This document shows positions 8,124-21,600 of a stretch of 64,000 bases of DNA, in pieces. Position 1 is the first letter of the stretch, and the number at the start of each line of letters is the position of its first letter. The DNA is from Patescibacteria group bacterium (GTDB taxonomy: Bacteria; Patescibacteriota; Microgenomatia; Levybacterales; UBA12049). Both the position numbers and the translations under genes were made by a program. Below the pieces are notes generated by a model, which saw nothing but the letters and a program-made list of their open reading frames with translations, made no database searches and was not told the origin of the DNA. The DNA is taken from NCBI GenBank assembly GCA_038064195.1, contig JBBTTO010000002.1, forward strand, positions 205,356 through 269,355, written 5' to 3'.

Positions 8124-9776
8124 CTACTTAGACAGGATTTTTTTTAGCTCAAGAAAAGAATAATGTTTTATGTTAGAAAAGATAAGTGCTTTCGGGTGAT
8201 CATAGACTTGAAAGGTTTCTTCGCTCAGATCATCGTTGATAGTTAGTCCGAGAATTTGCGGATAAGATGAAAATTCACCGACTTTTTTATATCCCAGCTT
8301 GCCGTTAAAAAGTAGCTGATAGTACTTTGCAGTAAGCGGGAATTTTTTAGGAAGATGAGTAAGGGTACCGTAAAGTCTACGACTGTTAATTGTTATGTAA
8401 TCAGCCTGTGATAGATAGTTAGCATAGTAATCAAGCTTAGCCGAGTTATCAGGTTCATAAATAGTTAGAGGAAGTAATTGATACCGCTGAGGATCTTTGC
8501 CCGGAAGTGGGATAGGTAAGCCTTCATCCCAGTGTTCACTCAATATAAATTTACCCGGCGGAATATGTTGATAAATCCACTCGGAGGCAGCAATTCGTGT
8601 CGGAATATTTCTATAAACAGACATGAAGGCAACAGCATACAGGAATGTTGCTCCGACCATACCGGCAGTAAGTATCGACCCCGCTACGCGATATCTTTTC
8701 AGTATTATTAACATGAAATGACAACCGAATATGATAAAGAATGGCAGGAGAGGAACGGTATAACGGTTAAATTTGGTATACCAGGATCCGACATACAAGA
8801 AATATAAAAAAGGGAATGAACAGAAGATTATGAAGGTAGCGCGCCTTCGACGTAATTCCTGAATCGTTGTCACAATAACTCCAAGCACTGCTATGCTTGC
8901 AAAGACACCCAGTTGCCACACAAGATTTATCAGCTGGAAAAGATAGCGAGGTGTACTTGAAAATTGCAATGTGTAGACAACTCTATTTGTACCAAGGACT
9001 ACAGAGTTCTCATAGCGCATCGACTCCATAAATTTGTTCCAGTTGAGGAATGTATAAGGTGAAAAAATACAAAACGTCACAAATGCTGTGAGGCCCATTA
9101 CTAAGCTAAGAAATAAGGCTTGAGAGAATTTTATCTTCTTTTTATAAAGTAGTATCAGGAGAGCTAATAGAGGCGCAACGAAAAAAGAGATGCCCGTTGT
9201 TTTGGTAGCAATAGCAATGCCAACTACAAGACCGATGATTACTGTTTTTTTATAGGATGGTTTTTCAAAAAGATTAATAGCAAGCAATGCAATGAGAACG
9301 ATAAGCAGACTAAGTAAATTTTCTGTCGTACTAAAATGAGCTGTCTGAATAGATGATACAGTCAGAGCGTAGATAATGCAGGTAAGAAAGGCCGTTCTCT
9401 GGTCAAATAATTTTTTGGCAAGAAAATAGAGCGGAAGAATGACCATGACCGAGAAAAATGCTGAGTAGGATCTCCCTATGAGGTTTATCCAGGCCCAATC
9501 ATGGGGTAATGAAGAGTTATGAAGAAGTAAGGCAAGTCCATCAGCCGTAGACTTGTATAAATAAATAAGAAACCCTCCATACGCATAGAATTTAGGGTCC
9601 ATCTGTGACGGTAAAATGATAGTGGAAACTGCAGCTGCGATATTGCGTTCATCAGGATGAAAATAAAGGCCCATATCCCAGTTAAGATTATAAAAGCGGA
9701 AGCCGGTAGCGAGAAGCAAGATGATTCCTAAAACAATTTTTGTTTTTGTATCAAGAAGGTGCTTGCGTTTGGTCAT
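8124..9776 (-). CDS. GT39/ArnT-like phospholipid-carrier-dependent glycosyltransferase (membrane)
   Basis: 550 aa polytopic protein. N-terminal FRFYNLNWDMGLYFHPDERNIA region typical of the PMT_2/ArnT family. Confidence 0.7.
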   Translation of the reverse strand: MTKRKHLLDTKTKIVLGIILLLATGFRFYNLNWDMGLYFHPDERNIAAAVSTIILPSQMDPKFYAYGGFLIYLYKSTADGLALLLHNSSLPHDWAWINLIGRSYSAFFSVMVILPLYFLAKKLFDQRTAFLTCIIYALTVSSIQTAHFSTTENLLSLLIVLIALLAINLFEKPSYKKTVIIGLVVGIAIATKTTGISFFVAPLLALLILLYKKKIKFSQALFLSLVMGLTAFVTFCIFSPYTFLNWNKFMESMRYENSVVLGTNRVVYTLQFSSTPRYLFQLINLVWQLGVFASIAVLGVIVTTIQELRRRRATFIIFCSFPFLYFLYVGSWYTKFNRYTVPLLPFFIIFGCHFMLIILKRYRVAGSILTAGMVGATFLYAVAFMSVYRNIPTRIAASEWIYQHIPPGKFILSEHWDEGLPIPLPGKDPQRYQLLPLTIYEPDNSAKLDYYANYLSQADYITINSRRLYGTLTHLPKKFPLTAKYYQLLFNGKLGYKKVGEFSSYPQILGLTINDDLSEETFQVYDHPKALIFSNIKHYSFLELKKILSK

Positions 9777-9784
9777 AGTCGGGA

Positions 9785-11068
9785 TTATGAATTATCAACA
9801 ATACGGGCAATCTTTTGGCCTAGCTCAACTGCATAATTGGTACCTCTGTCCCAGGGATAGACTTGCTCAATATTGGCTAAGTAGATATTTTTAAGAGGGG
9901 TAATAAATGCGGGAAGGAGCTTGGAATACCCGGTCGGCACGATAGGTTGGGCGAAGGGTGCCCGAAAGACTCTATAGCTAATCAACGCTTTTTTGTAATC
10001 AGGATTAATTTTTACAAGTGTTGAGTCATAGTGTTTGAGTAGTTCCTCTTTCGTCATGGTAAATTCAGGACTCGTGGGTTCTAAGTAATTACCTACATAA
10101 AGCAAATGCTCGTTATTGAAGTGTTTTTTATCGATTAGATTGGTGTGTTGCACGACCACCATCACAGGTGAGTCCCTCTCACAAATACTGAGCCAATACG
10201 TCCCGTCATGTAAAAAAGGTTTAGTCAATCGAAGAATCATATTGGAAGCACCCAGTCCGCGAAGTCTAACCAGTTTGTTCCTATAGTCATCAGGCAACTG
10301 GGGTGTAATTTTCAAAAATAAAAAAGATGGAAGCGTTACGATTACCCGGTCAAAGATGAAGCTTTCTTCTTTCCCTTTTGCATTCTTTGTTTTGACAGTT
10401 GCTTTATCTGAATCGGTTAGTTCGACTATTTCTGTTTGGAAATAAAAAGTGCCTTTTTGTTTTTTAATTTCTTCAACTACATGCTTAGCAAAGGTAAGAA
10501 ACCCGCCTTCAGGATAGGCTAGGGAAGGAGTTCGTTTGTTAATTCGTGTCCAGAACCAGACAAGTGATATTTCTTGAGCATATTTTCCCATTTTATTACG
10601 CAGTTGCGGTTCCCATAAAAGCGAAAAAGCTCTTCCCCCCATCGTTTTTGAGAGAAAACGTATTGCATTAATTTTTTCAAGCGGCTTCCAAAAAGGATTA
10701 AAGCGCAGAAAAGCGAGGACGATACTCATTCTCAGGCGATCGATAAGTGATAATTGTGAAAAAGTAAGAATTGCTTTCGGTGAGTCAAGCTGGTAGCTTT
10801 TTCCTTTTATAAAAACAGATGTCTTCGGGCGTTTGATGATGACGTGATGGTTAATCTCCCTGGCAAGATTTAAAACAAAATTATCATTGGTAAACCAGTG
10901 GTGATAATGTTTTTCCAAAGTCCAATCCCAGTCTTTTTCCTTGTAACCAACAGCCAACCCTCCCGGCTCCTGATCCCTTTCAAAAACAGTCACGCTATGA
11001 CCTTTTTTCTGCAATTCATAAGCTGCCGCCAGACCGGTAAATCCGGCACCAATAATCCCTATTTTCAT
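9785..11068 (-). CDS. FAD-dependent oxidoreductase (amine-oxidase/protoporphyrinogen-oxidase-like fold)
   Basis: MKIGIIGAGFTGLAAAYELQKKGHSVTVFERDQEPGGLA is a classic GxGxxG-(x17)-E dinucleotide-binding motif plus GG motif. Confidence 0.65.
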   Translation of the reverse strand: MKIGIIGAGFTGLAAAYELQKKGHSVTVFERDQEPGGLAVGYKEKDWDWTLEKHYHHWFTNDNFVLNLAREINHHVIIKRPKTSVFIKGKSYQLDSPKAILTFSQLSLIDRLRMSIVLAFLRFNPFWKPLEKINAIRFLSKTMGGRAFSLLWEPQLRNKMGKYAQEISLVWFWTRINKRTPSLAYPEGGFLTFAKHVVEEIKKQKGTFYFQTEIVELTDSDKATVKTKNAKGKEESFIFDRVIVTLPSFLFLKITPQLPDDYRNKLVRLRGLGASNMILRLTKPFLHDGTYWLSICERDSPVMVVVQHTNLIDKKHFNNEHLLYVGNYLEPTSPEFTMTKEELLKHYDSTLVKINPDYKKALISYRVFRAPFAQPIVPTGYSKLLPAFITPLKNIYLANIEQVYPWDRGTNYAVELGQKIARIVDNS

Positions 11069-12468
11069 AGTGAGCTGCCTTTAACAAGGAGGATAAGGAG
11101 GGCTCCTGTTCCTGCCATAATTGTCGCTATTATACCTGAGAGGAAGACAAGAGAACTACCGGGCGATTGCGTGACGGGTGCAACACTCTGGGTTAGTATC
11201 CCTGATACCGGAGTTCTGGTCGTAGGTGTGGGGGTTGAGGTTGCGGCCAGAGTTGCTGTCGGTGTCGGACTCAGGGACGGGATATTTGTCGGAGTCGGTG
11301 TATCAGTAGGTGTAGGCGAGGGAGTTATCTGCTGAGGTGAGACTGAAGGTTCAGTGAACTGACTCCCTTCGGCAAAGACCGTGAAAGAGCGGGTGATGGT
11401 TTGGAGGATCCCGTTACTGTCTTTTGTCTTGATGGTAATTGTATGCTCACCGGGGCTGAGTTTGGTCGTCGGGCGATACGACCATGATCCATTTTTATTT
11501 GCTGTAACTGAGGTAGTGATCGGTGTGTCTGAATGAATTTCGATTTCAACAGATTGAGACGGTAAGGCTGTTCCTTCAAATTCTGGCTGCGCGTCATGGA
11601 ATCCTTCCTTATTATCAGGATTCAGGATTTGCGGTTTGGTAGGGCCTGCCTCGGTGCCCGCAAAAGACGGGAAGGACTCCGTGGCTGAACTTGAGGCAAG
11701 AGGAGAGGGAGAAAGACGTGAGGATGTGGTGAAGTCATAAGCGTTGCCGAGGAGAATTGGTGGGACGGGGCTTATTTGACTGGCAAAAACAGATGCTGTG
11801 GCCTGATTATCAGCTCCGACTGCAAGCAGTTTAATGATTGATTGCGGGGTAAATGTCAGATAACTTGCTAAGTCTTTTGATCTAATAGCGTTGAGTGGCA
11901 TGATAAAAGTTCCGTCCGTCTTGGAGAGAACGGAGAGGGTTTGGGCGTTGTCACTTACCAGAAAGACGATGATATTATTGCTTTTATTTCCTGCGCTATC
12001 TGATACATTCCCGATAATAGGTTGTTGTTGTGACGGGTTTTGACTCAAAGGAGACAACGTCGTTATGCTAAAGGGCTGATCATTATCAAGAAAGGTTTTG
12101 TCTGAGGAGGCAATACTGTAGTAATAGCGTGTTTGGGCACTCAGGTTTTTTAGCGTAATATGATGCACAAAATAAGGTTGCGGGTTCCCCGATTGCTGAT
12201 CCCGATCATCAAGAGCGACTTTCCCCACAGCCGCGGTTGTACCATAGGAGAGCGTGCCGAGGGCCGGCGCTCTTGTTATATAGGACACAGTAAAGGATGA
12301 ATCGCTCAGATTGGTAATACGGATGTTTTCGGGAGTATAGGTCGGCGAAGCTTTACTTTCAAAAAAGACACCGTGACTGATCGCCCAATTTATCCCAAAG
12401 ATTCCCCCGATAAGCAGAAAGAGACCAAGTAATGTTGGAATTCGCTTATACCAGATTGAACCGTTCAT
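11065..12468 (-). CDS. cell-surface protein with FN3-like domains, a Pro/Thr-rich linker and a C-terminal TM anchor
   Basis: N-terminal signal/TM. ITNLSDSSFTVSYITRAPALGTLSYGTT resembles FN3/purple-acid-phosphatase N-domain. A PTPTDTPTPTNIPSLSPTPTATLAATSTPTPTT linker is encoded by GC-rich repeats at 11100-11340. C-terminal hydrophobic helix. Confidence 0.55.
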   Translation of the reverse strand: MNGSIWYKRIPTLLGLFLLIGGIFGINWAISHGVFFESKASPTYTPENIRITNLSDSSFTVSYITRAPALGTLSYGTTAAVGKVALDDRDQQSGNPQPYFVHHITLKNLSAQTRYYYSIASSDKTFLDNDQPFSITTLSPLSQNPSQQQPIIGNVSDSAGNKSNNIIVFLVSDNAQTLSVLSKTDGTFIMPLNAIRSKDLASYLTFTPQSIIKLLAVGADNQATASVFASQISPVPPILLGNAYDFTTSSRLSPSPLASSSATESFPSFAGTEAGPTKPQILNPDNKEGFHDAQPEFEGTALPSQSVEIEIHSDTPITTSVTANKNGSWSYRPTTKLSPGEHTITIKTKDSNGILQTITRSFTVFAEGSQFTEPSVSPQQITPSPTPTDTPTPTNIPSLSPTPTATLAATSTPTPTTRTPVSGILTQSVAPVTQSPGSSLVFLSGIIATIMAGTGALLILLVKGSSL

Positions 12469-14272: not shown

Positions 14273-16390
14273 TTGATTTTAGTTATGGCAGATACATCAC
14301 GACAAGTTCCTCTTGAAAGAATTCGCAATATCGGTATTATTGCGCATATTGACGCGGGCAAAACCACGACAACTGAACGCATTCTTTTTTATACCGGTCG
14401 TACCTATAAAATCGGTGATATTGATGAAGGTAATACCCAAATGGACTGGATGGAGCAGGAAAAAGAACGCGGGATCACGATCGTTTCAGCAGCGACGACT
14501 ACTTTTTGGAAAGACTATCGTATCAATATAATTGATACCCCGGGGCACGTTGACTTCACGGCAGAGGTAGAGCGCTCCCTCCGCGTTCTTGATGGAGGCA
14601 TTACCGTACTGGACGCTGAGGAAGGTGTGCAGTCTCAGTCAGAAACCGTCTGGCGTCAGGCAGACAAGTATAAAGTTCCCCGTATTTGTTTTGTCAATAA
14701 AATGGATAAATTAGGGGCTGATTTTTTGGCTACTGTCAAAAGTATTGAAGACCGACTCGGCGCGAATCCTGCCATCATGGTCATCCCCATTGGTGCTGAG
14801 AACACCTATGTCGGGAATGTCGATTTACTTACCAGAAAGGCGATTCGTTGGAGCTCCGAAGAACTTGGTGCGAAATTTGATGTCAGTGATGATATTCCTG
14901 AAGAACTAAAGGCGCAGGTAGAAGAATATCGTTCAAAGCTTATTGAGAAAATTTCAGAGACAGATGACGCTTTACTTGAAAAATATCTGGCCGGGGAAGA
15001 GCCGACTGTTGATGAGCTTAAGAAAGCACTTCGGGCAGCTGTTATTGCCTATAAATTAGTTCCGATTTATGCAGGTACTTCTCTTCGCAATAAGGGTGTC
15101 CAGCCGCTTTTGGATGCAGTCATAGATTATCTTCCGTCCCCTGTCGACTTAAAAGAGGTAAAAGGTATCCATCCCAAGACAAATGAGCCAGAGGTGCGTC
15201 AGCTCGTTCCTGCGGAGTCTTTCAGTGGTCTCGCATTTAAGATTCAGAACGATCCGCATGTCGGGAAACTTACGTATTTCCGTGTTTATTCAGGCAAAAT
15301 AGAAGCCGGTTCGTATGTTTTTAACAGTTCTAAAGGAGTTAAAGAACGTGTCGGGCGCTTACTGATGATGCATGCAAATCAAAGAGAGGAAATAAAAGAA
15401 GGTTTTGCCGGAGAGATTGTGGCAGTTGTAGGACTAAAAGACACAGGTACAGGAGATACACTCTGTGATGAGGCAAAGCCGATTGTCTTGGAGAAAATTT
15501 CTTTCCCTGAGCCGGTTATTTCACTGGCGATTGAGCCCCAGACTAAGTCAGATCAGGAAAAGTTAGGCTATGCCTTAAAACGCCTGACGGAGGAGGATCC
15601 GACATTCTCAGTAAAAAGCAATCATGAGACAGGTCAAACAATCATCTCAGGTATTGGTGAGCTACAGCTTGAAGTTATGGTAGACCGTATGAAAAGGGAA
15701 TTTAATGTCTTGGCTAATGTCGGTGCACCTCAAGTAGCTTATAAAGAAACGTTCACTGAAGAAGTCAAAGCAGAGGGTAAATATATTCGTCAGTCCGGAG
15801 GACGAGGACAATTCGGACATTGTTGGCTCAGAATTGAGCCAAAAACCCGCGGTGAGGGAAATGAGTTCGTCAGTGAGATTAAGGGAGGAGCTATCCCTCA
15901 AGAATTCGTCAAAGCAGTTGAGAAAGGAGTCTGGGAAACACTTGAAAATGGAGTCCTACTTGGGTATCCGATTGTTGATGTCAAGGTCGCATGTTATGAC
16001 GGGTCCTATCATGAAGTTGACTCGAGTGAAGTAGCCTTTAAGATTGCTGCTTCTCAGGCTATCCAGGCAGCCTCCAAGAAAACACAGATGAATCTGCTTG
16101 AGCCTATCATGAAGGTTGAAGTGACGACTCCATCAGAGTTCATGGGAGATGTGATGGGTGATCTTTCCAGTAAACGCGCACAAATTATTGGCACTGAGGA
16201 ACGCGCTCGAGCTACCATTATTAACGCGATGGTTCCTTTGTCTGAATTAACAGGCTATGTAACAACGCTTCGCTCGATGAGTAAAGGTCGAGCAAGTGCT
16301 TATGTTGAGCCGAGTCACTATGACATCGTTCCCCGTAACATCGTCGACCAGATGGTCGCCAAATCCACTTTCACCGGCCGCGTTGAATAA
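14273..16390 (+). CDS. fusA: elongation factor G
   Basis: [23 protein letters not shown] and NKMDK GTPase motifs, full-length 705 aa EF-G. Confidence 0.95.
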
Positions 16391-16410
16391 AACCTAACCT
16401 ATCCTATAGT

Positions 16411-16440
16411 TGATTATCCAGCTTATTTTGTTTATAATGC
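16411..16440 (+). promoter_or_regulatory. near-consensus sigma70-type promoter (TTGATT-17 nt-TATAAT) upstream of the Cys-rich mini-ORF
   Basis: ttgattatccagcttattttgtttataat read directly. The 17-nt spacer is ideal. Confidence 0.45.
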
Positions 16441-16485
16441 AAATAGTGTTGTCCGTTTGGATGACAGAAGTAGAAAGGTACGACC

Positions 16486-16758
16486 GTGAGTCACGAAGAA
16501 GTCGACGAATGGTACCGGAAAAATCAGCCAAGGGAAGAAGTCTGCTCCGGATGCAATGGCACCGGCAGGATGGACTCAATGACCGACTCCGGATCGTTCA
16601 CCTGCACCTGGTGCGGAGGCAGCGGGAAGCCGAACGAGTATTCTCGGCGATTCGGTCACGGGACTGTAACCCGGTGTGCTCACTGCCACGGGACGGGACA
16701 GATTGACTCAATCGCTGATGCCGGTAAATTCCCCTGTCCCTACTGCAGCCGCCGATGA
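16486..16758 (+). CDS. small DnaJ-CR-like zinc-finger protein (three CxxCxGxG repeats plus a CxxC)
   Basis: GTG start. CSGCNGTG, CTWCGGSG, CAHCHGTG and CPYC spaced like the DnaJ cysteine-rich domain. Encoded in a roughly 400-bp segment of markedly higher GC than its surroundings. Confidence 0.6.
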   Translation: MSHEEVDEWYRKNQPREEVCSGCNGTGRMDSMTDSGSFTCTWCGGSGKPNEYSRRFGHGTVTRCAHCHGTGQIDSIADAGKFPCPYCSRR

Positions 16759-16966
16759 AAAGGCAAGTCAAACGTTCCAAAGCACCGTAAGGTGAGAAAG
16801 GATTGCCTATGGCACAGGTCCTGCAAGCGCAGGCGAAAAGAGTGTCTTAGGGTTGTCCAATCTCTACAACCCCAGGGTGCTTTTTTCATGGAAGGAAGCT
16901 ATAATTTTAGATATTTTTTTAAAATCAGCTTGTAAATTAATTCTAATCAAGTTACTATAGCTTTCC

Positions 16967-18076
16967 ATGAAGAAGAAAATCCGGATTGGTATTTTGTTTG
17001 GTGGGCAGTCGGCCGAGCACGAGGTCTCGATCCAGTCGGCAAAGAATGTTGTGGCTGCTTTAGATAAAAGCAAATACGAGGCAGTCCCGATTGGCATCAC
17101 TAAAAAAGGCAAATGGCATAGTTTTACCCAAGCGCAATTCAATCTCCTTGCTAGCAAAAACTATCAGGCTCTCCCAGAGAAGGTAGCTAGTGAGAGCTTG
17201 CCTATCGTTTCAGTAAAGCAAGGCAACCTTGACGTTGTTTTTCCCATTTTGCATGGGCCGATGGGTGAGGATGGAACGGTTCAGGGCTTGTTGAAATTAA
17301 TGGATATACCTTTTATCGGAGCGGATGTACTCGGCTCAGCCTTAGGGATGGACAAAGATGTCATGAAGCGGTTGCTGCGTGATGCAGGACTACCAATTGC
17401 AAAGTTTTTAGTATTTCATAAAAAGAATAATACCGTCATTCTGGCAAACGGAGTGCGTCCAGAATCAACAAAAGATAGATCCTGGACAAGCCAGGATGAC
17501 GAATTGTTTTTATTTGTCAAAAAACAATTAGGACTTCCTTTTTTTGTAAAACCTGCTAATCTTGGTTCCTCAGTCGGAGTTTCAAAAGTTCATAGTTCAG
17601 AGGAGTTTGATAGAGCAATAGATAAAGCATTTAGTTATGACAGAAAAATTCTTGTTGAAGAGGGAATTGACGCACGCGAAATTGAGTGTTCGGTCTTAGG
17701 TAATGAAGAAAAAATTGCATCAGTTCCTGGAGAAATAATTCCAAGCCATGAATTTTATGACTATGAGGCAAAGTATATTGATGAAGATGGTGCAATACTT
17801 GATATCCCTGCTAAATTAAACAAAAAACAAGTAAAAGAGATCCAGGAGATGGCCATTAAAGCTTGCCAAGTTCTCTGCGTGGATGGAATGGCGAGGGTTG
17901 ATTTTTTTATAGACAAAAAAACAGACAAGATCTATATCAATGAGATTAATACCACTCCTGGCTTTACCAATATCAGCATGTATCCCAAGCTTTGGGAGGC
18001 AAGCGGTATCCCGTATGCAGCCTTAATTGATCGATTAATAAGCCTGGCACTCGAAAGACATAAAAAAAGAGTATAG
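16967..18076 (+). CDS. ddl: D-alanine--D-alanine ligase
   Basis: IGILFGGQSAEHEVS and HGPMGEDGTVQGLLKLMDIPFIG, with an ATP-grasp C-terminal half (EINTTPGFT). Confidence 0.9.
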   Translation: MKKKIRIGILFGGQSAEHEVSIQSAKNVVAALDKSKYEAVPIGITKKGKWHSFTQAQFNLLASKNYQALPEKVASESLPIVSVKQGNLDVVFPILHGPMGEDGTVQGLLKLMDIPFIGADVLGSALGMDKDVMKRLLRDAGLPIAKFLVFHKKNNTVILANGVRPESTKDRSWTSQDDELFLFVKKQLGLPFFVKPANLGSSVGVSKVHSSEEFDRAIDKAFSYDRKILVEEGIDAREIECSVLGNEEKIASVPGEIIPSHEFYDYEAKYIDEDGAILDIPAKLNKKQVKEIQEMAIKACQVLCVDGMARVDFFIDKKTDKIYINEINTTPGFTNISMYPKLWEASGIPYAALIDRLISLALERHKKRV

Positions 18077-18106
18077 CTAGGCCTATAGCTAAAATATGAT
18101 ACAATA

Positions 18107-19288
18107 GTGCCACCTATGGCACGTAAAAGAATAACCGAACACAAAGCCAAGGAGCTCTTTTTGGAATACCTCGGTCTCCCCTACCAGGGAAGAGAAGTGA
18201 GAGGGAATGACTTCTCCACCATTTCTGATCTTGACTCTGGAACTACCTATGTTGTTAAAGTTGATCAGGGTATCAAGAAAAGATTTAAATTAGGCTTAGT
18301 TGCACTTGATATCTCGGTAGATAAGCTCCCTCATGAAATAAAACAACTTGCTGACAAAGGCTATTCTCAGTTCATTGTTGAGCCCTTTCGTACACATGTT
18401 CAATCTCAGGAGCGGTATGTAGCAATTCAGAGAACTCGTGAAGGGTTTACGTTTCTTCTCTCTACACAAGGAGGAGTCAGTATTGAAGAACACAGTGATT
18501 CATTAAAAACATTCCCTCATACACAAATCGTCAAAGCGGCAGAATTCATTGGGCTCACACAAGAGCTGCTTGAGAAGATGCTTAAGGCAATGGATGAATA
18601 TCATTTTTCATTCCTTGAGGTTAATCCACTTATCCATACTGGTGATGATATCTATTTGCTTGATTTAGCTGTTGAGGTTGATAGTGCAGGCGAGTTCTTT
18701 GTTAAAAATAGCTGGACACACAAAGATTTTGTGGCAGATGGTAGTGGTAAGACAGATGAGGAAAAAGCTGTTGAAGAGTTATCTGATAAAAGCCAGGCAT
18801 CATTCCGACTTGCCGTCCTCAACCCAAATGGGTCAATTTTTATGCTCCTTTCAGGCGGAGGAGCAAGTATCGTTCTGGCTGATGAGGTATATAACCAAGG
18901 TAAAGGTAAAGAGCTAGCTAACTATGGAGAATATAGCGGTAATCCGAATGCTGAGGAAACATATCTTTATACAAAGCAAATCTTACGTTTATTACTTTCT
19001 TCTCAGGCAAAAAGAAAAGCGCTTATCATTGCCGGCGGAGTAGCTAATTTTACTGATATTCGGGTGACTTTTAAGGGCATCATCCAGGCTCTTGATGAAG
19101 TTAAAAATGAACTAAAGGCTCAAGGTGTAAAGGTTTTTGTGCGCCGTGGTGGGCCTTATCAGGAAGAGGGTTTAGCTACTATGAAAACCTATCTTGAAAA
19201 AGAGGATTTACTAGGAACGCTTGCAGGTCCGGAGATGATGTTGACTGATGTTGTTTCACAAGGACTTAAGGAGGTTACTCATGCTTGA
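18107..19288 (+). CDS. ATP-citrate lyase subunit A-like (ATP-grasp / citryl-CoA synthetase beta-like)
   Basis: VVKVDQGIKKRFKLGLV, FIVEPF, YLEVNPL, NPNGSIFMLLSGGGASIV, ELANYGEYSGNP, ANFTDIRVTFKGII and VFVRRGGPYQEEGL match, block by block, the N-terminal half of ACLY/AclA as I remember it. They match SucC much less well. Confidence 0.75.
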   Translation: MPPMARKRITEHKAKELFLEYLGLPYQGREVRGNDFSTISDLDSGTTYVVKVDQGIKKRFKLGLVALDISVDKLPHEIKQLADKGYSQFIVEPFRTHVQSQERYVAIQRTREGFTFLLSTQGGVSIEEHSDSLKTFPHTQIVKAAEFIGLTQELLEKMLKAMDEYHFSFLEVNPLIHTGDDIYLLDLAVEVDSAGEFFVKNSWTHKDFVADGSGKTDEEKAVEELSDKSQASFRLAVLNPNGSIFMLLSGGGASIVLADEVYNQGKGKELANYGEYSGNPNAEETYLYTKQILRLLLSSQAKRKALIIAGGVANFTDIRVTFKGIIQALDEVKNELKAQGVKVFVRRGGPYQEEGLATMKTYLEKEDLLGTLAGPEMMLTDVVSQGLKEVTHA

Positions 19289-21071
19289 TATTAACAATCT
19301 CAAACAACAACCAACCAATATCCTTTTTCTGGGAAGCCATCCCGGTATCATCCAGTCTATTTTGGACTTTGATTACCTGGCAGGTAAATCCGAGCCCAGT
19401 GTAAAAGGAATTATCGCGGGTGGAAGAAGGTTTGAAAGGTTTTTTTTCGGAAAGAAAGAAATTCTTCTCCCTGTCTCCCCCACCGTCTCAGGGCTTTCTG
19501 AGTCAATACGATCAGAAATAACCTATTTTTTTAATACGACTTCAGGCAGGCGCGCGTTTTCATCAACGCAAGAAGCATTTGAAGTATTGCCTAAAGTACT
19601 GGGCGGAATTATTTTTGCTGAGGATGTGCCTGAGGAGCATGCAGCCAAGCTTTATCAGCTTGTTGAAGCTAAAAACAAATTTGTGATAGGGCCGGCCAGC
19701 GTCGGTCTGTTATTGCCTAATATTCTCAAATTAGGGGCAATCGGTGGGGTTGATACCAGACAACTCATTGCCTCAGATGTTTTTATACAGGGTAATGTGG
19801 CTGTTTTCTCGGCCTCCGGGGGAATGACTAATGAGATTATCAATATAGTCGCGAAGCAAGGAAGAAGGCTCAGTTTTGCCCTTTCCTTTGGAGGCGATCG
19901 TTTCCCGGTCCTTACACCCCAAAGCGCGTTTGAAATTGCAGAAAATGATCCGCAGACAGAAACGATTATTTATTTCGGTGAACTCGGGGGTACGGATGAA
20001 TATGATGTGGTAAGGCTTCTTAAAGAGAAGAAAGTAAACAAGCCGGTCCTGTGCTACATCGGAGGTGTGGTCGCAGACTTGTTTGAGACTCCTCCGCAAT
20101 TTGGTCATGCTAAGGCGTTAGCCGAAACAGGAGAGGAAACAGCACGCGCTAAACGAGATGCCTTACGGGAGGCAGGCGCGCAGGTAGCTGAGTCGTTTGG
20201 TGAATTTGTTGAACTGATTGGTAAGATCAAAACTCGTGATAAAATCAACACAAAGGATTATACTCTTCTTATGAAAGATCTTTCTGATCGACAGCATGCT
20301 TTGATTACCAGCAGTATTTCCAGTGATGAAAAAGGAGATGTCAAAATTCTGGGCGAGGATTTGCTGGAATTTGTCCAGGCGAGATCATTTGCTGGTATTG
20401 TCGCCTCATTGTTCTTAGGTAAAGCAAAAGTCAGTAAGGATCTTGAGGACTTTGTCGATTTTACCCTACGCCTCCTGGTCGATCACGGTCCGTATGTTTC
20501 AGGAGCTGTCAATACAATTATTACAGCGCGAGCAGGCAGAGACCTCTCATCTTCACTTGCAGCCGGACTTTTGACAATCGGACCTCGTTTTGGCGGAGCG
20601 ATTAATCAGGCGGCTATTAATTGGCTTGAGGGTGTAACGAAGGGTGTATCAGCCCACGATTTTGTCGAGGAATTCGCAATCCGTAAAGAGTATATATCCG
20701 GTATTGGACATCGTAAATACAGGGTCGATCTTCCCGATCCGCGAGTCAATAAGCTTCTCGAGTTCTCAGAAAGTCTTAAGGTCAAACGTTTTACATCGTT
20801 TGCAAAAGACGTTGCCGCAATCACCACGGCTAAGAAAGGTAATCTCATCTTAAACGTTGATGGGACAATTGCCGCTGTTTTACTTGATCTTTTATCTGAA
20901 AAAGAAGGTATGACAGATCAGGAACTGGATAAAATCACCCGGACAGAATTTTTTAATGCTCTTTTTGTTTTGTCACGCAGTGTCGGTTTTATTGCCCATT
21001 TTCTTGATCAGAAGAGGCTTGATGAGGGACTTTTTCGCCTTGGGGAAAAGCATGTCACAACCCTTGATTAA
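19281..21071 (+). CDS. ATP-citrate lyase subunit B-like (CoA-binding plus citrate-synthase-like domain)
   Basis: Start taken at the MLDINN Met, which overlaps the aclA-like stop. CoA-binding/SucD-like N-domain with the phosphohistidine-loop-like QFGHAKALAETGE. C-terminal GIGHRKYRVDLPDPRV resembles the citrate-synthase/ACL GHRxK..DPR motif. Confidence 0.75.
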   Translation: MLDINNLKQQPTNILFLGSHPGIIQSILDFDYLAGKSEPSVKGIIAGGRRFERFFFGKKEILLPVSPTVSGLSESIRSEITYFFNTTSGRRAFSSTQEAFEVLPKVLGGIIFAEDVPEEHAAKLYQLVEAKNKFVIGPASVGLLLPNILKLGAIGGVDTRQLIASDVFIQGNVAVFSASGGMTNEIINIVAKQGRRLSFALSFGGDRFPVLTPQSAFEIAENDPQTETIIYFGELGGTDEYDVVRLLKEKKVNKPVLCYIGGVVADLFETPPQFGHAKALAETGEETARAKRDALREAGAQVAESFGEFVELIGKIKTRDKINTKDYTLLMKDLSDRQHALITSSISSDEKGDVKILGEDLLEFVQARSFAGIVASLFLGKAKVSKDLEDFVDFTLRLLVDHGPYVSGAVNTIITARAGRDLSSSLAAGLLTIGPRFGGAINQAAINWLEGVTKGVSAHDFVEEFAIRKEYISGIGHRKYRVDLPDPRVNKLLEFSESLKVKRFTSFAKDVAAITTAKKGNLILNVDGTIAAVLLDLLSEKEGMTDQELDKITRTEFFNALFVLSRSVGFIAHFLDQKRLDEGLFRLGEKHVTTLD

Positions 21072-21511
21072 TAGATAAAGGGGATAAAGCGTTTGGTTTT
21101 TCTTTGATAATCCTCGTAACCCTTCTTAAAATACTTCACAAGGAGTGTTTCTTCATAGTTAGCTTTTATAAAGAGATCACATATAAGCAGAAGAGAAGCA
21201 AATATTCTAGGGAAAGAAGAATTATTGAAGAGAAGGCCAATCGCAACGAGTAAAACGGCTGTGTACATCGGATGACGGATGAACTCGTATGGTCCGTCAG
21301 TGACGAGATTGCTATCGGGAGCGACATCAGCAGTAATCTGAATAGTTGTAATCCGCATCGACCAAATTGCCCAGAGCCCAAGCAGTATACCCAGGAGCTC
21401 ACAAATTCCCGCAAGAGAACTAAGAGGAAGCACAGGCCCACTTAAGAAAAGATAGATAAGCAGCAGCGCTTGAAGGAGGACGAGGAAAAGGGATTTAGGG
21501 TTGCGGGACAT
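21068..21511 (-). CDS. isoprenylcysteine carboxyl methyltransferase / PEMT-family membrane methyltransferase
   Basis: About 4 TM segments. C-terminal FIRHPMYTAVLLVAIGLLF...EE..L motif typical of the ICMT/PEMT family. Confidence 0.7.
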   Translation of the reverse strand: MSRNPKSLFLVLLQALLLIYLFLSGPVLPLSSLAGICELLGILLGLWAIWSMRITTIQITADVAPDSNLVTDGPYEFIRHPMYTAVLLVAIGLLFNNSSFPRIFASLLLICDLFIKANYEETLLVKYFKKGYEDYQRKTKRFIPFIY

Positions 21512-21600
21512 ACCCTGATTATTACTCAGAGATAGATATTACGCAAGAGCAGGTATCTTTTTGTTGAGTTTTATAGCAAAATAGTATATAAAGGCTAGCT

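Follow-up and report, generated by a model that had tools for sequence, protein, structure and literature searches.

A lineage-specific 538-nt cassette between fusA and ddl of a Patescibacteria genome carries a gene for a DnaJ-type zinc-finger microprotein and was probably acquired horizontally

The DNA analysed here is a 64,000-nucleotide (nt) stretch of the genome of a Patescibacteria group bacterium (contig JBBTTO010000002.1, positions 205,356 to 269,355), hereafter called the window. Between fusA, which encodes EF-G, and ddl there is a short GC-rich block with an open reading frame (ORF) for a zinc-finger microprotein of 90 amino acids (aa). A first-pass annotation of the sequence had described this block as a mini-cassette of roughly 400 bp and suggested that it was horizontally acquired or mobile. 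Comparison with five relatives delimited an insertion of 538 nt specific to this lineage. We interpret the insertion, with a probability of about 0.8, as a transcription unit of one gene that is self-contained, was acquired horizontally and has the architecture of a phage 'moron', though at a core chromosomal site. The features of the locus are as follows:

16391-16928, plus strand: the whole cassette, a lineage-specific insertion of 538 nt, from comparison with five relatives
16403-16409, plus strand: CCTATAG box abutting the -35 hexamer on its upstream side, from a scan with the pattern CCTRTAG-N0-2-TTGA
16410-16438, plus strand: predicted sigma-70-type promoter, TTGATT-17-TATAAT, 10 of 12 consensus matches, within the inserted DNA
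16447-16466, plus strand: hairpin UGUUGUCC-GUUU-GGAUGACA in the 5' untranslated region (5' UTR), at the predicted 5' end of the transcript, from a fold of 16447-16895
16472-16478, plus strand: Shine-Dalgarno-like AGAAAGG, 7 nt upstream of the GTG start
16486-16758, plus strand: gene of the 90-aa zinc-finger microprotein, GTG start and TGA stop, from the ORF list and Pfam
16779-16886, plus strand: 105-nt imperfect rod hairpin, AAAGCACC/GGGUGCUUU, running into U6, a predicted intrinsic terminator that would insulate ddl, from the fold
16889-16928, plus strand: AT-rich right arm, 23% GC, with no recognised function, from composition and comparison with relatives
16929-16966, plus strand: native fusA-ddl spacer with the ddl promoter, outside the insert and collinear with the five relatives

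Employing the Ddl sequence of the window as the query, we searched the GTDB species genomes and a collection of 5.8 billion proteins and looked up the contigs of the best matches. Five relatives carried fusA directly upstream of ddl: L004 and L005 (GTDB genomes) and L087, L088 and L089 (Logan assemblies). In all five, a 39-nt spacer, CTTGCAG-N17-TACTATAACTTTTCA, separated the stop codon of fusA from the ATG of ddl. The corresponding gap in the window is 576 nt long, and its last 38 nt (CTTGTAA-N17-TACTAT-AGCTTTCC-ATG, with the start codon) are collinear with the 39-nt spacer of the relatives. Because the native spacer is kept at 16929-16966, the extra DNA corresponds to 16391-16928. The insertion point lies exactly between the stop codon of fusA and the -35 element of ddl, whose promoter in the window consists of TTGTAA (16930-16935), a 17-nt spacer and TACTAT (16953-16958), followed after 8 nt by the ATG at 16967.

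The nearest relative, L087, shares with the window the gene order pilO-fusA-ddl-ATP-citrate-lyase-like genes-PIG-L and is 88% identical in nucleotides through fusA, 98.6% identical in the amino acids of EF-G and 88.7% in those of AclB. The homology between the two breaks at 16386 and picks up again at 16950. Within the insert, AT-rich arms (27% and 23% GC) flank a core of 54.6% GC; the full unit exceeds the roughly 400 bp given in the first-pass annotation. An independent run assembly (L086; Logan, ERR3858127) reproduces 16661-19763 of the window at 100% identity and thereby confirms the right-hand junction. That contig breaks within the microprotein ORF, at 16661, and not at the insertion border; a drop in coverage or strain variation may be the reason. 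The coding core recurs at the loci L001 and L090 described below; otherwise neither the window nor any fetched locus contained a further copy of the insert.

The base composition of the insert also sets it apart. Its GC content of 56.5% at 16481-16880 is the highest of any 400-bp interval in the 64 kb (z = 3.8; window mean 41.9%), and the block first noticed, 16470-16870, has 55.4%. The ORF at 16486-16758 has 58% GC and a GC content at third codon positions (GC3) of 0.648, compared with 0.377 +/- 0.044 for the 63 other long ORFs of the window; this is 6 standard deviations (SD) over the window genes. When those 63 ORFs were cut into ninety-codon windows, none of the 1293 exceeded a GC3 of 0.54. 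Since the ORF lies outside all of them, codon usage itself is shifted, and not merely the amino-acid content, which is rich in Cys and Gly. The first-pass annotation had proposed this comparison of GC content and codon usage, and the outcome, together with the absence of the cassette from the five related contigs, agrees with its view of horizontally acquired, non-native content.

The ORF has no earlier start because of an in-frame TAG at 16471. Its sole close homologue, P0001 (81 aa), is 78% identical in amino acids and 75% in nucleotides, and the nucleotide alignment is confined to the coding core at 16528-16748 (221 nt), with unrelated flanks. Over the 74 codons aligned with the P0001 gene (L001), the differences amounted to 11, 7 and 38 at the first, second and third codon positions (pN 0.11; pS about 0.75, which is saturated). 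The remaining five frames had no codon-phase pattern or were interrupted by stop codons. Judged from this comparison, the ORF is a real gene under purifying selection, because the differences concentrate at third codon positions.

The microprotein contains two tandem four-cysteine units, C20/C23/C40/C43 and C64/C67/C84/C87, with the motifs CSGCNGTG, CTWCGGSG, CAHCHGTG and CPYC; no other CxxCxGxG was present in the six reading frames of the window. It is a tandem duplicate of CxxCxGTGx[MI]DS[MI]xDxGxFxCx[WY]C, the two halves being 50% identical over 24 residues (BLASTP E = 2e-10). Among Pfam families, Anti-TRAP (PF15777) was the top match, with 36.9 bits (cut-off 32); the DnaJ cysteine-rich (CR) family PF00684 matched with E = 1.3e-7, residues 20-88 covering profile positions 1-62 of 65. 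The NCBIfam DnaJ_bact model aligned only at its positions 141-199 of 354, that is, at the cysteine-rich domain, and the best sequence match in the PDB was 1EXK, the cysteine-rich domain of Escherichia coli DnaJ (E = 0.04). The tblastn matches in metagenomes and in a 636-kb phage were likewise cysteine-rich regions of true DnaJ proteins. A Pfam scan (E <= 10) of the 90-aa protein found no J domain (PF00226), only 19 residues preceding the first CxxC, and Pfam found no C-terminal substrate-binding domains (PF01556), the ORF ending 3 residues past the last CxxC. The repeat protein without J or C-terminal domains was thus as first described, and its assignment to the DnaJ CR type appears to hold at the level of the domain.

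Compared to the CR domain of type I DnaJ/Hsp40 (PF00684, 1EXK), the microprotein has the same four CxxC pairs, three of them in full CxxCxGxG motifs, in the same order and with similar spacing. The profile alignment takes in nearly the whole domain, and the central linker of the microprotein aligns with the beta-hairpin of DnaJ. However, the microprotein stands alone, without the J domain, the G/F region (rich in glycine and phenylalanine) and the C-terminal domains; its fourth motif lacks GxG, and its two halves clearly go back to a tandem duplication that looks recent. As judged from the homologous DnaJ CR domain and Anti-TRAP, the eight cysteines in four CxxC pairs would form two Zn(Cys)4 sites, as in the V-shaped fold of the CR domain.

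CR-type zinc fingers without a J domain are known from the plant and plastid proteins PSA2, ORANGE, BSD2 and LQY1, which serve as assembly, holdase or thiol-oxidoreductase factors (PMC4806229, PMC12063368). These are eukaryotic and larger, with targeting or membrane segments, and nothing closer than the shared motif was found to relate them to the microprotein. A redox/zinc chaperone role, which the first-pass annotation had considered possible, would be of the kind seen in these plant proteins. By analogy with Anti-TRAP and these plant DnaJ-like zinc-finger proteins, the protein is most likely a small zinc-stabilised module that binds a partner protein so as to hold or block it. A role as an Hsp70 (DnaK) co-chaperone is unlikely. 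A PADLOC scan returned a single weak 19-bit match, and PHROG gave only weak, motif-level matches.

The cassette appears to carry its own transcription signals. The predicted promoter comprises a -35 hexamer TTGATT (16410-16415), a 17-nt spacer and a -10 hexamer TATAAT (16433-16438). It had been recognised in the first-pass annotation, with coordinates off by 1-2 nt, and it is private to the cassette in that it lies within the inserted DNA. Downstream of the gene, the sequence 16776-16890 folds at -41.8 kcal/mol (z = -3.67), and none of 200 shuffled sequences was equally stable. The optimal fold is a single long rod with the CCUGC hairpin (CCTGC-AAGC-GCAGG, 16820-16833) at its tip, and a T6 run follows at 16881-16886. 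All the elements that had been noted in the 3' region were found, but the GGGTTGT/ACAACCC hairpin (16850-16856/16866-16872) is only an alternative pairing to the best-fold rod. A search of 15900-17400 against Rfam (E <= 1) returned no family, T-box included, and ARAGORN found no transfer-messenger RNA (tmRNA).

Based on these features, the following course of events can be proposed. The imported 538 bp would have entered one lineage, presumably by illegitimate recombination. Transcription would begin near 16445 from the near-consensus sigma-70 promoter of the insert with its upstream CCTATAG box, giving a transcript with a short 5' UTR that contains the hairpin and the Shine-Dalgarno sequence, and translation from the GTG would yield the 90-aa protein, which may act as a zinc-stabilised protein-binding module. 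The rod hairpin with U6 would end the cassette transcript ahead of ddl. Because of this predicted termination, the strong imported promoter would not drive ddl, which would be expressed from its own retained promoter.

The cassette may be compared with the morons of phages. As defined for the HK97 gene 15 element and similar cases (PMC3594210), a moron consists of one ORF that has a promoter and a terminator of its own and deviates in GC content, and it lies between genes that are neighbours in relatives. The cassette resembles these elements in its one ORF with (here predicted) promoter and terminator, in its deviant GC content and in its insertion between otherwise adjacent genes. It differs from them in being flanked by core genes (EF-G, Ddl, ATP-citrate-lyase-like and PilO genes) and not by phage or prophage genes, and its ORF had no phage relative in the searches reported here. 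If the predicted promoter and terminator are counted, the cassette would share three of the four traits of the definition, residence in a phage being the exception, and we apply the term 'moron' to the architecture only.

To define the family, an exhaustive search with a hidden Markov model (HMM) was made in 1.84 billion representative proteins. Only P0001 and P0002 (80 aa, E = 4.5e-11) emerged from it as true relatives; a word-index search returned one homologue (P0001). A scan of JGI metagenomes gave only one true DnaJ and one 52-aa one-zinc finger, and among 50,697 phage records the only match was the cysteine-rich region of a true DnaJ of a huge phage. The gene contexts of the three members differ, so that the neighbourhood gives no hint of function: the window gene stands alone between fusA and ddl, P0001 is the second gene of a GC-rich island, and P0002, whose gene has a host-like composition, lies upstream of a P-type ATPase.

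The island of P0001 is located at 9150-11250 of locus L090 (contig CAZCCG010000001.1 of GCA_964497535.1, 393 kb; also represented by L001 and L091). It is a 2.1-kb GC-rich segment in a genome of 41% GC: host genes at L090 have a GC3 of 0.29-0.44, and four consecutive island ORFs have 0.51-0.71. These four ORFs make up three units, each with a promoter, one or more ORFs and a hairpin/T-run terminator, and the promoters of the island are near-identical (CCTGTAGTRTTGAC-N15-TGCTATATT). The ORFs beside the zinc-finger gene (P0129, P0131 and P0132, of 109, 161 and 188 aa) gave no family matches and had no close relative in IMG/VR contigs, phage records and plasmids being outside that search. P0132, the sole island neighbour searched for homologues, had none detectable. 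No shared genes linking the L090 host and the organism of the window were found. Since synonymous sites are saturated between the two zinc-finger genes, yet both are GC-rich, independent recent arrivals from a GC-rich reservoir are suggested. As an additional observation, a P-R-E-E motif occurs near the N-terminus of the window microprotein, of P0001 and of the 109-aa ORF upstream of P0001, and in two of these three cassette ORFs W-Y stands a few residues before it (window 16486-16545; L001 276-335 and 635-675); this may be a coincidence.

The box upstream of the cassette promoter was found in the island as well. In the window, the cassette promoter provides the only occurrence of the pattern CCTRTAG-N0-2-TTGA. 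Elsewhere, in the fetched bacterial and metagenome loci, it occurs at the three island promoters of L001/L090 and at one other promoter of L090, which drives a gene of native composition. The box was therefore present at all four cassette promoters and once outside cassettes in about 0.7 Mb of bacterial and metagenome sequence. The alignment of the window promoter with that of the native-composition gene in L090 scored better than 1996 of 2000 shuffles. In viral contigs, the strict pattern gave no occurrence and a relaxed pattern gave two isolated matches at chance level (L093 and L094). These five sites in two genomes may point to a type of promoter that is carried along with cassettes of this kind.

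Several observations concern ddl and its surroundings. In this clade, Ddl changes at a much higher rate than the products of the adjacent genes: between 16967-18076 of the window and 4001-5053 of L087, 77% of its amino acids are identical, compared with 98.6% for EF-G and 88.7% for AclB. Window ddl also has a 63-nt in-frame extra segment, relative to L087, near 17416-17519. We considered co-transfer of the cassette and ddl by homologous recombination, for ddl is 57-84% identical to that of L087 in nucleotides and its flanks 88-95%. We dismissed it, as the rapid divergence of Ddl is general across the clade: the gap between EF-G and Ddl identity is alike for window and L087 (98.6/77.0%) and for L004 and L005 (98.0/77.8%). 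In six genomes, the ATG of ddl lies 8-9 nt past a conserved -10 element TACTAT, itself 17 nt downstream of the -35 element TTGCAG or TTGTAA, and the start regions compared (window 16929-16969; L004/L005 3962-4003; L087 3962-4003) have no Shine-Dalgarno sequence. The mRNA of ddl is probably leaderless or near-leaderless in this clade. A 12-nt inverted repeat (92% complementary) connects the terminator end, UUUUUCAUGGAA (16882-16893), with the ddl start region, UUCCAUGAAGAA (16963-16974); in a read-through transcript it may hide the start codon of ddl, and chance is an equally possible explanation.

Farther downstream, there is a second single-gene difference from L087. A gene for a 147-aa isoprenylcysteine-methyltransferase-like protein (window 21073-21599; ORF 21068-21511, minus strand) lies between the ATP-citrate-lyase-like and PIG-L genes, where the gap in L087 is 2 nt; its GC3 of 0.43 is near the host level. 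Assignment of the host from its nearest public genomes is tentative: they bear the label Candidatus Levyibacteriota (Microgenomates/Patescibacteria), but not consistently. L004 (CAZERI010000003.1) is recorded as 'uncultured Gammaproteobacteria' and L005 (JBDHUU010000002.1) as 'Candidatus Levyibacteriota'; because the two are 98% identical in EF-G and have the same gene order, at least one of these labels is probably wrong.

The interpretation as a horizontally acquired single-gene unit has to be weighed against a number of observations. No insertion mechanism is visible in the sequence: terminal inverted repeats, a target-site duplication and a recombinase were sought at the insert, and none was found. 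Of the proposal that the module was acquired or mobile, acquisition is supported, whereas self-mobilisation is not established for this single-copy insert. Three repeats that might have served as signatures of a mobile element, namely the 9-nt repeat AAAATCAGC (16520 and 16921), a TAAAA(C/T)C string at each border, and TAG(T/G)GTTGTCC, a repeat of 11 nt (16444 and 16848), were rejected as being at the chance level for 660 nt. The left junction, from fusA to the cassette, is supported by the window assembly only. No donor came to light, IMG/VR and the PLSDB plasmids containing no relative of the microprotein, and the three family members share no neighbourhood. The promoter and terminator are predictions from consensus and thermodynamics; promoter matches of at least 10/12 number 26 in 128 kb (both strands), about 1 per 5 kb, and the match at the cassette is by itself only moderately significant. 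With PF00684, the microprotein scores 32.2 bits, slightly under the gathering score of 32.7 (P0001 and P0002 score 26.7 and 26.9 bits). The AlphaFold2 models are of low confidence (pLDDT 49 with a three-sequence alignment and 43 with the single sequence), and zinc ligation may follow either of two candidate topologies, that of DnaJ (1+4, 2+3) or that of Anti-TRAP (1+2, 3+4).

The same locus could be explained by loss instead of gain, the cassette being ancestral native content deleted independently in the relatives. Presence and absence by themselves cannot separate insertion from deletion, and five relatives were compared. However, at least two clades (L087/L088/L089 and L004/L005) have no cassette and share the same 39-nt spacer; deletion is unparsimonious because several clean deletions with identical endpoints would be required. 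Nor is a GC3 of 6 SD over the host expected of a long-resident gene, and we regard this explanation as very improbable. A better case can be made for derivation from a prophage or some other mobile element, of which a true phage moron would have survived decay, or for delivery of the DNA by a phage or plasmid of this group of bacteria. The promoter-ORF-terminator layout and the deviant GC content accord with the moron definition (PMC3594210), small CxxCxGxG proteins of phages were matched weakly in PHROG (E about 1e-5), and horizontal gene transfer is documented for Patescibacteria, in part through viruses (PMC12455944). On the other hand, the flanks are core genes in conserved synteny around an insert of just 538 nt, neither phage genes nor att-like repeats were found at the locus, the microprotein had no match in IMG/VR or PLSDB and only that to a true DnaJ in the phage records, and the neighbouring island ORFs of the homologue also lacked close relatives in IMG/VR contigs. 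A phage or plasmid remnant is, on balance, unlikely.

The remaining explanations concern the nature of the element itself. GC-rich islands within AT-rich genomes are frequently RNA genes, and 16447-16895 folds better than its shuffled versions (z = -2.05; for the 3' part, z = -3.67), as would be anticipated if the block were a structured non-coding RNA gene with an incidental ORF. Against this stand the empty Rfam (E <= 1) and tmRNA scans, the 11/7/38 pattern of differences over codon positions with conserved cysteines and glycines, and the limitation of the L001 homology to the coding part, the structured 3' region not being conserved; an RNA gene is hardly credible. The small intergenic unit with its long imperfect 3' hairpin, and an RYYYAAC-like ACCTAAC at the left border, recall an integron-type gene cassette or an element like a miniature inverted-repeat transposable element or insertion sequence. 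But the unit is single-copy in the window, terminal inverted repeats and a target duplication were not found, no integrase or transposase is among the neighbours, and the presence of its own promoter is unlike typical integron cassettes. The hairpin ends, AAAGCACC...GGGTGCTTT, have no RYYYAAC/GTTRRRY cores by reading of the sequence, no attC covariance model being used. Such an element is extremely improbable here. In view of the top Pfam match, the protein might be orthologous to Anti-TRAP (RtpA) of Bacillus, with a TRAP-like RNA-binding protein as its regulatory target. Anti-TRAP is also a free-standing bacterial microprotein of DnaJ-type CxxCxGxG motifs that works by protein binding, and each half of the window protein resembles its one zinc module. 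However, Anti-TRAP has about 53 aa, with a single zinc module and a C-terminal helix through which it forms trimers, and is encoded in a T-box-controlled operon (PMC2896485), whereas the window protein has 90 aa and two modules with no evident C-terminal trimerisation helix, comes from an unrelated phylum and has no T-box leader according to the Rfam scan. It also failed the NCBIfam RtpA equivalog model (24.2 bits against a cut-off of 65), and we give next to no credence to orthology.

We therefore retain the interpretation as a horizontally acquired single-gene unit. A more far-reaching proposal is that the cassette belongs to a pool of autonomous mini-cassettes that spread as 'chromosomal morons'. 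In each of them, an ORF that is GC-rich and either an ORFan or rare would be combined with a terminator of its own and with a promoter module common to the pool, in which a CCTRTAG box abuts the -35 TTGA. The proposal draws on the island of P0001 with its three units of this kind, on the box at all four cassette promoters and on the two zinc-finger genes, both GC-rich despite saturated synonymous sites. They may spread among AT-rich uncultured genomes, possibly of Patescibacteria, entering intergenic spacers without a recognisable recombinase. We hold this proposal to be doubtful, and the present evidence is that of ordinary horizontal acquisition.

Single-gene gains in the streamlined genomes of Patescibacteria have been detected by composition and comparison (PMC12455944). 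The cassette differs from the transferred genes and islands reported there in being delimited to the nucleotide and in having its own (predicted) regulatory signals. Both the horizontal transfer of single genes into Patescibacteria and free-standing CR-type zinc fingers were already known. The cassette presents an unusually clean, nucleotide-resolved gain of a single foreign gene in a streamlined uncultured bacterium, in which the essential neighbours were left undisturbed and the promoter of ddl intact. Its product, with three members among 1.84 billion representatives, defines a very rare form of the DnaJ-type zinc finger that stands alone and has two modules, and it is small enough for direct synthesis and testing. 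If the CCTRTAG box does mark a wider class of cassettes, these would represent a route of gene flow in candidate phyla that present finders of islands and prophages overlook.

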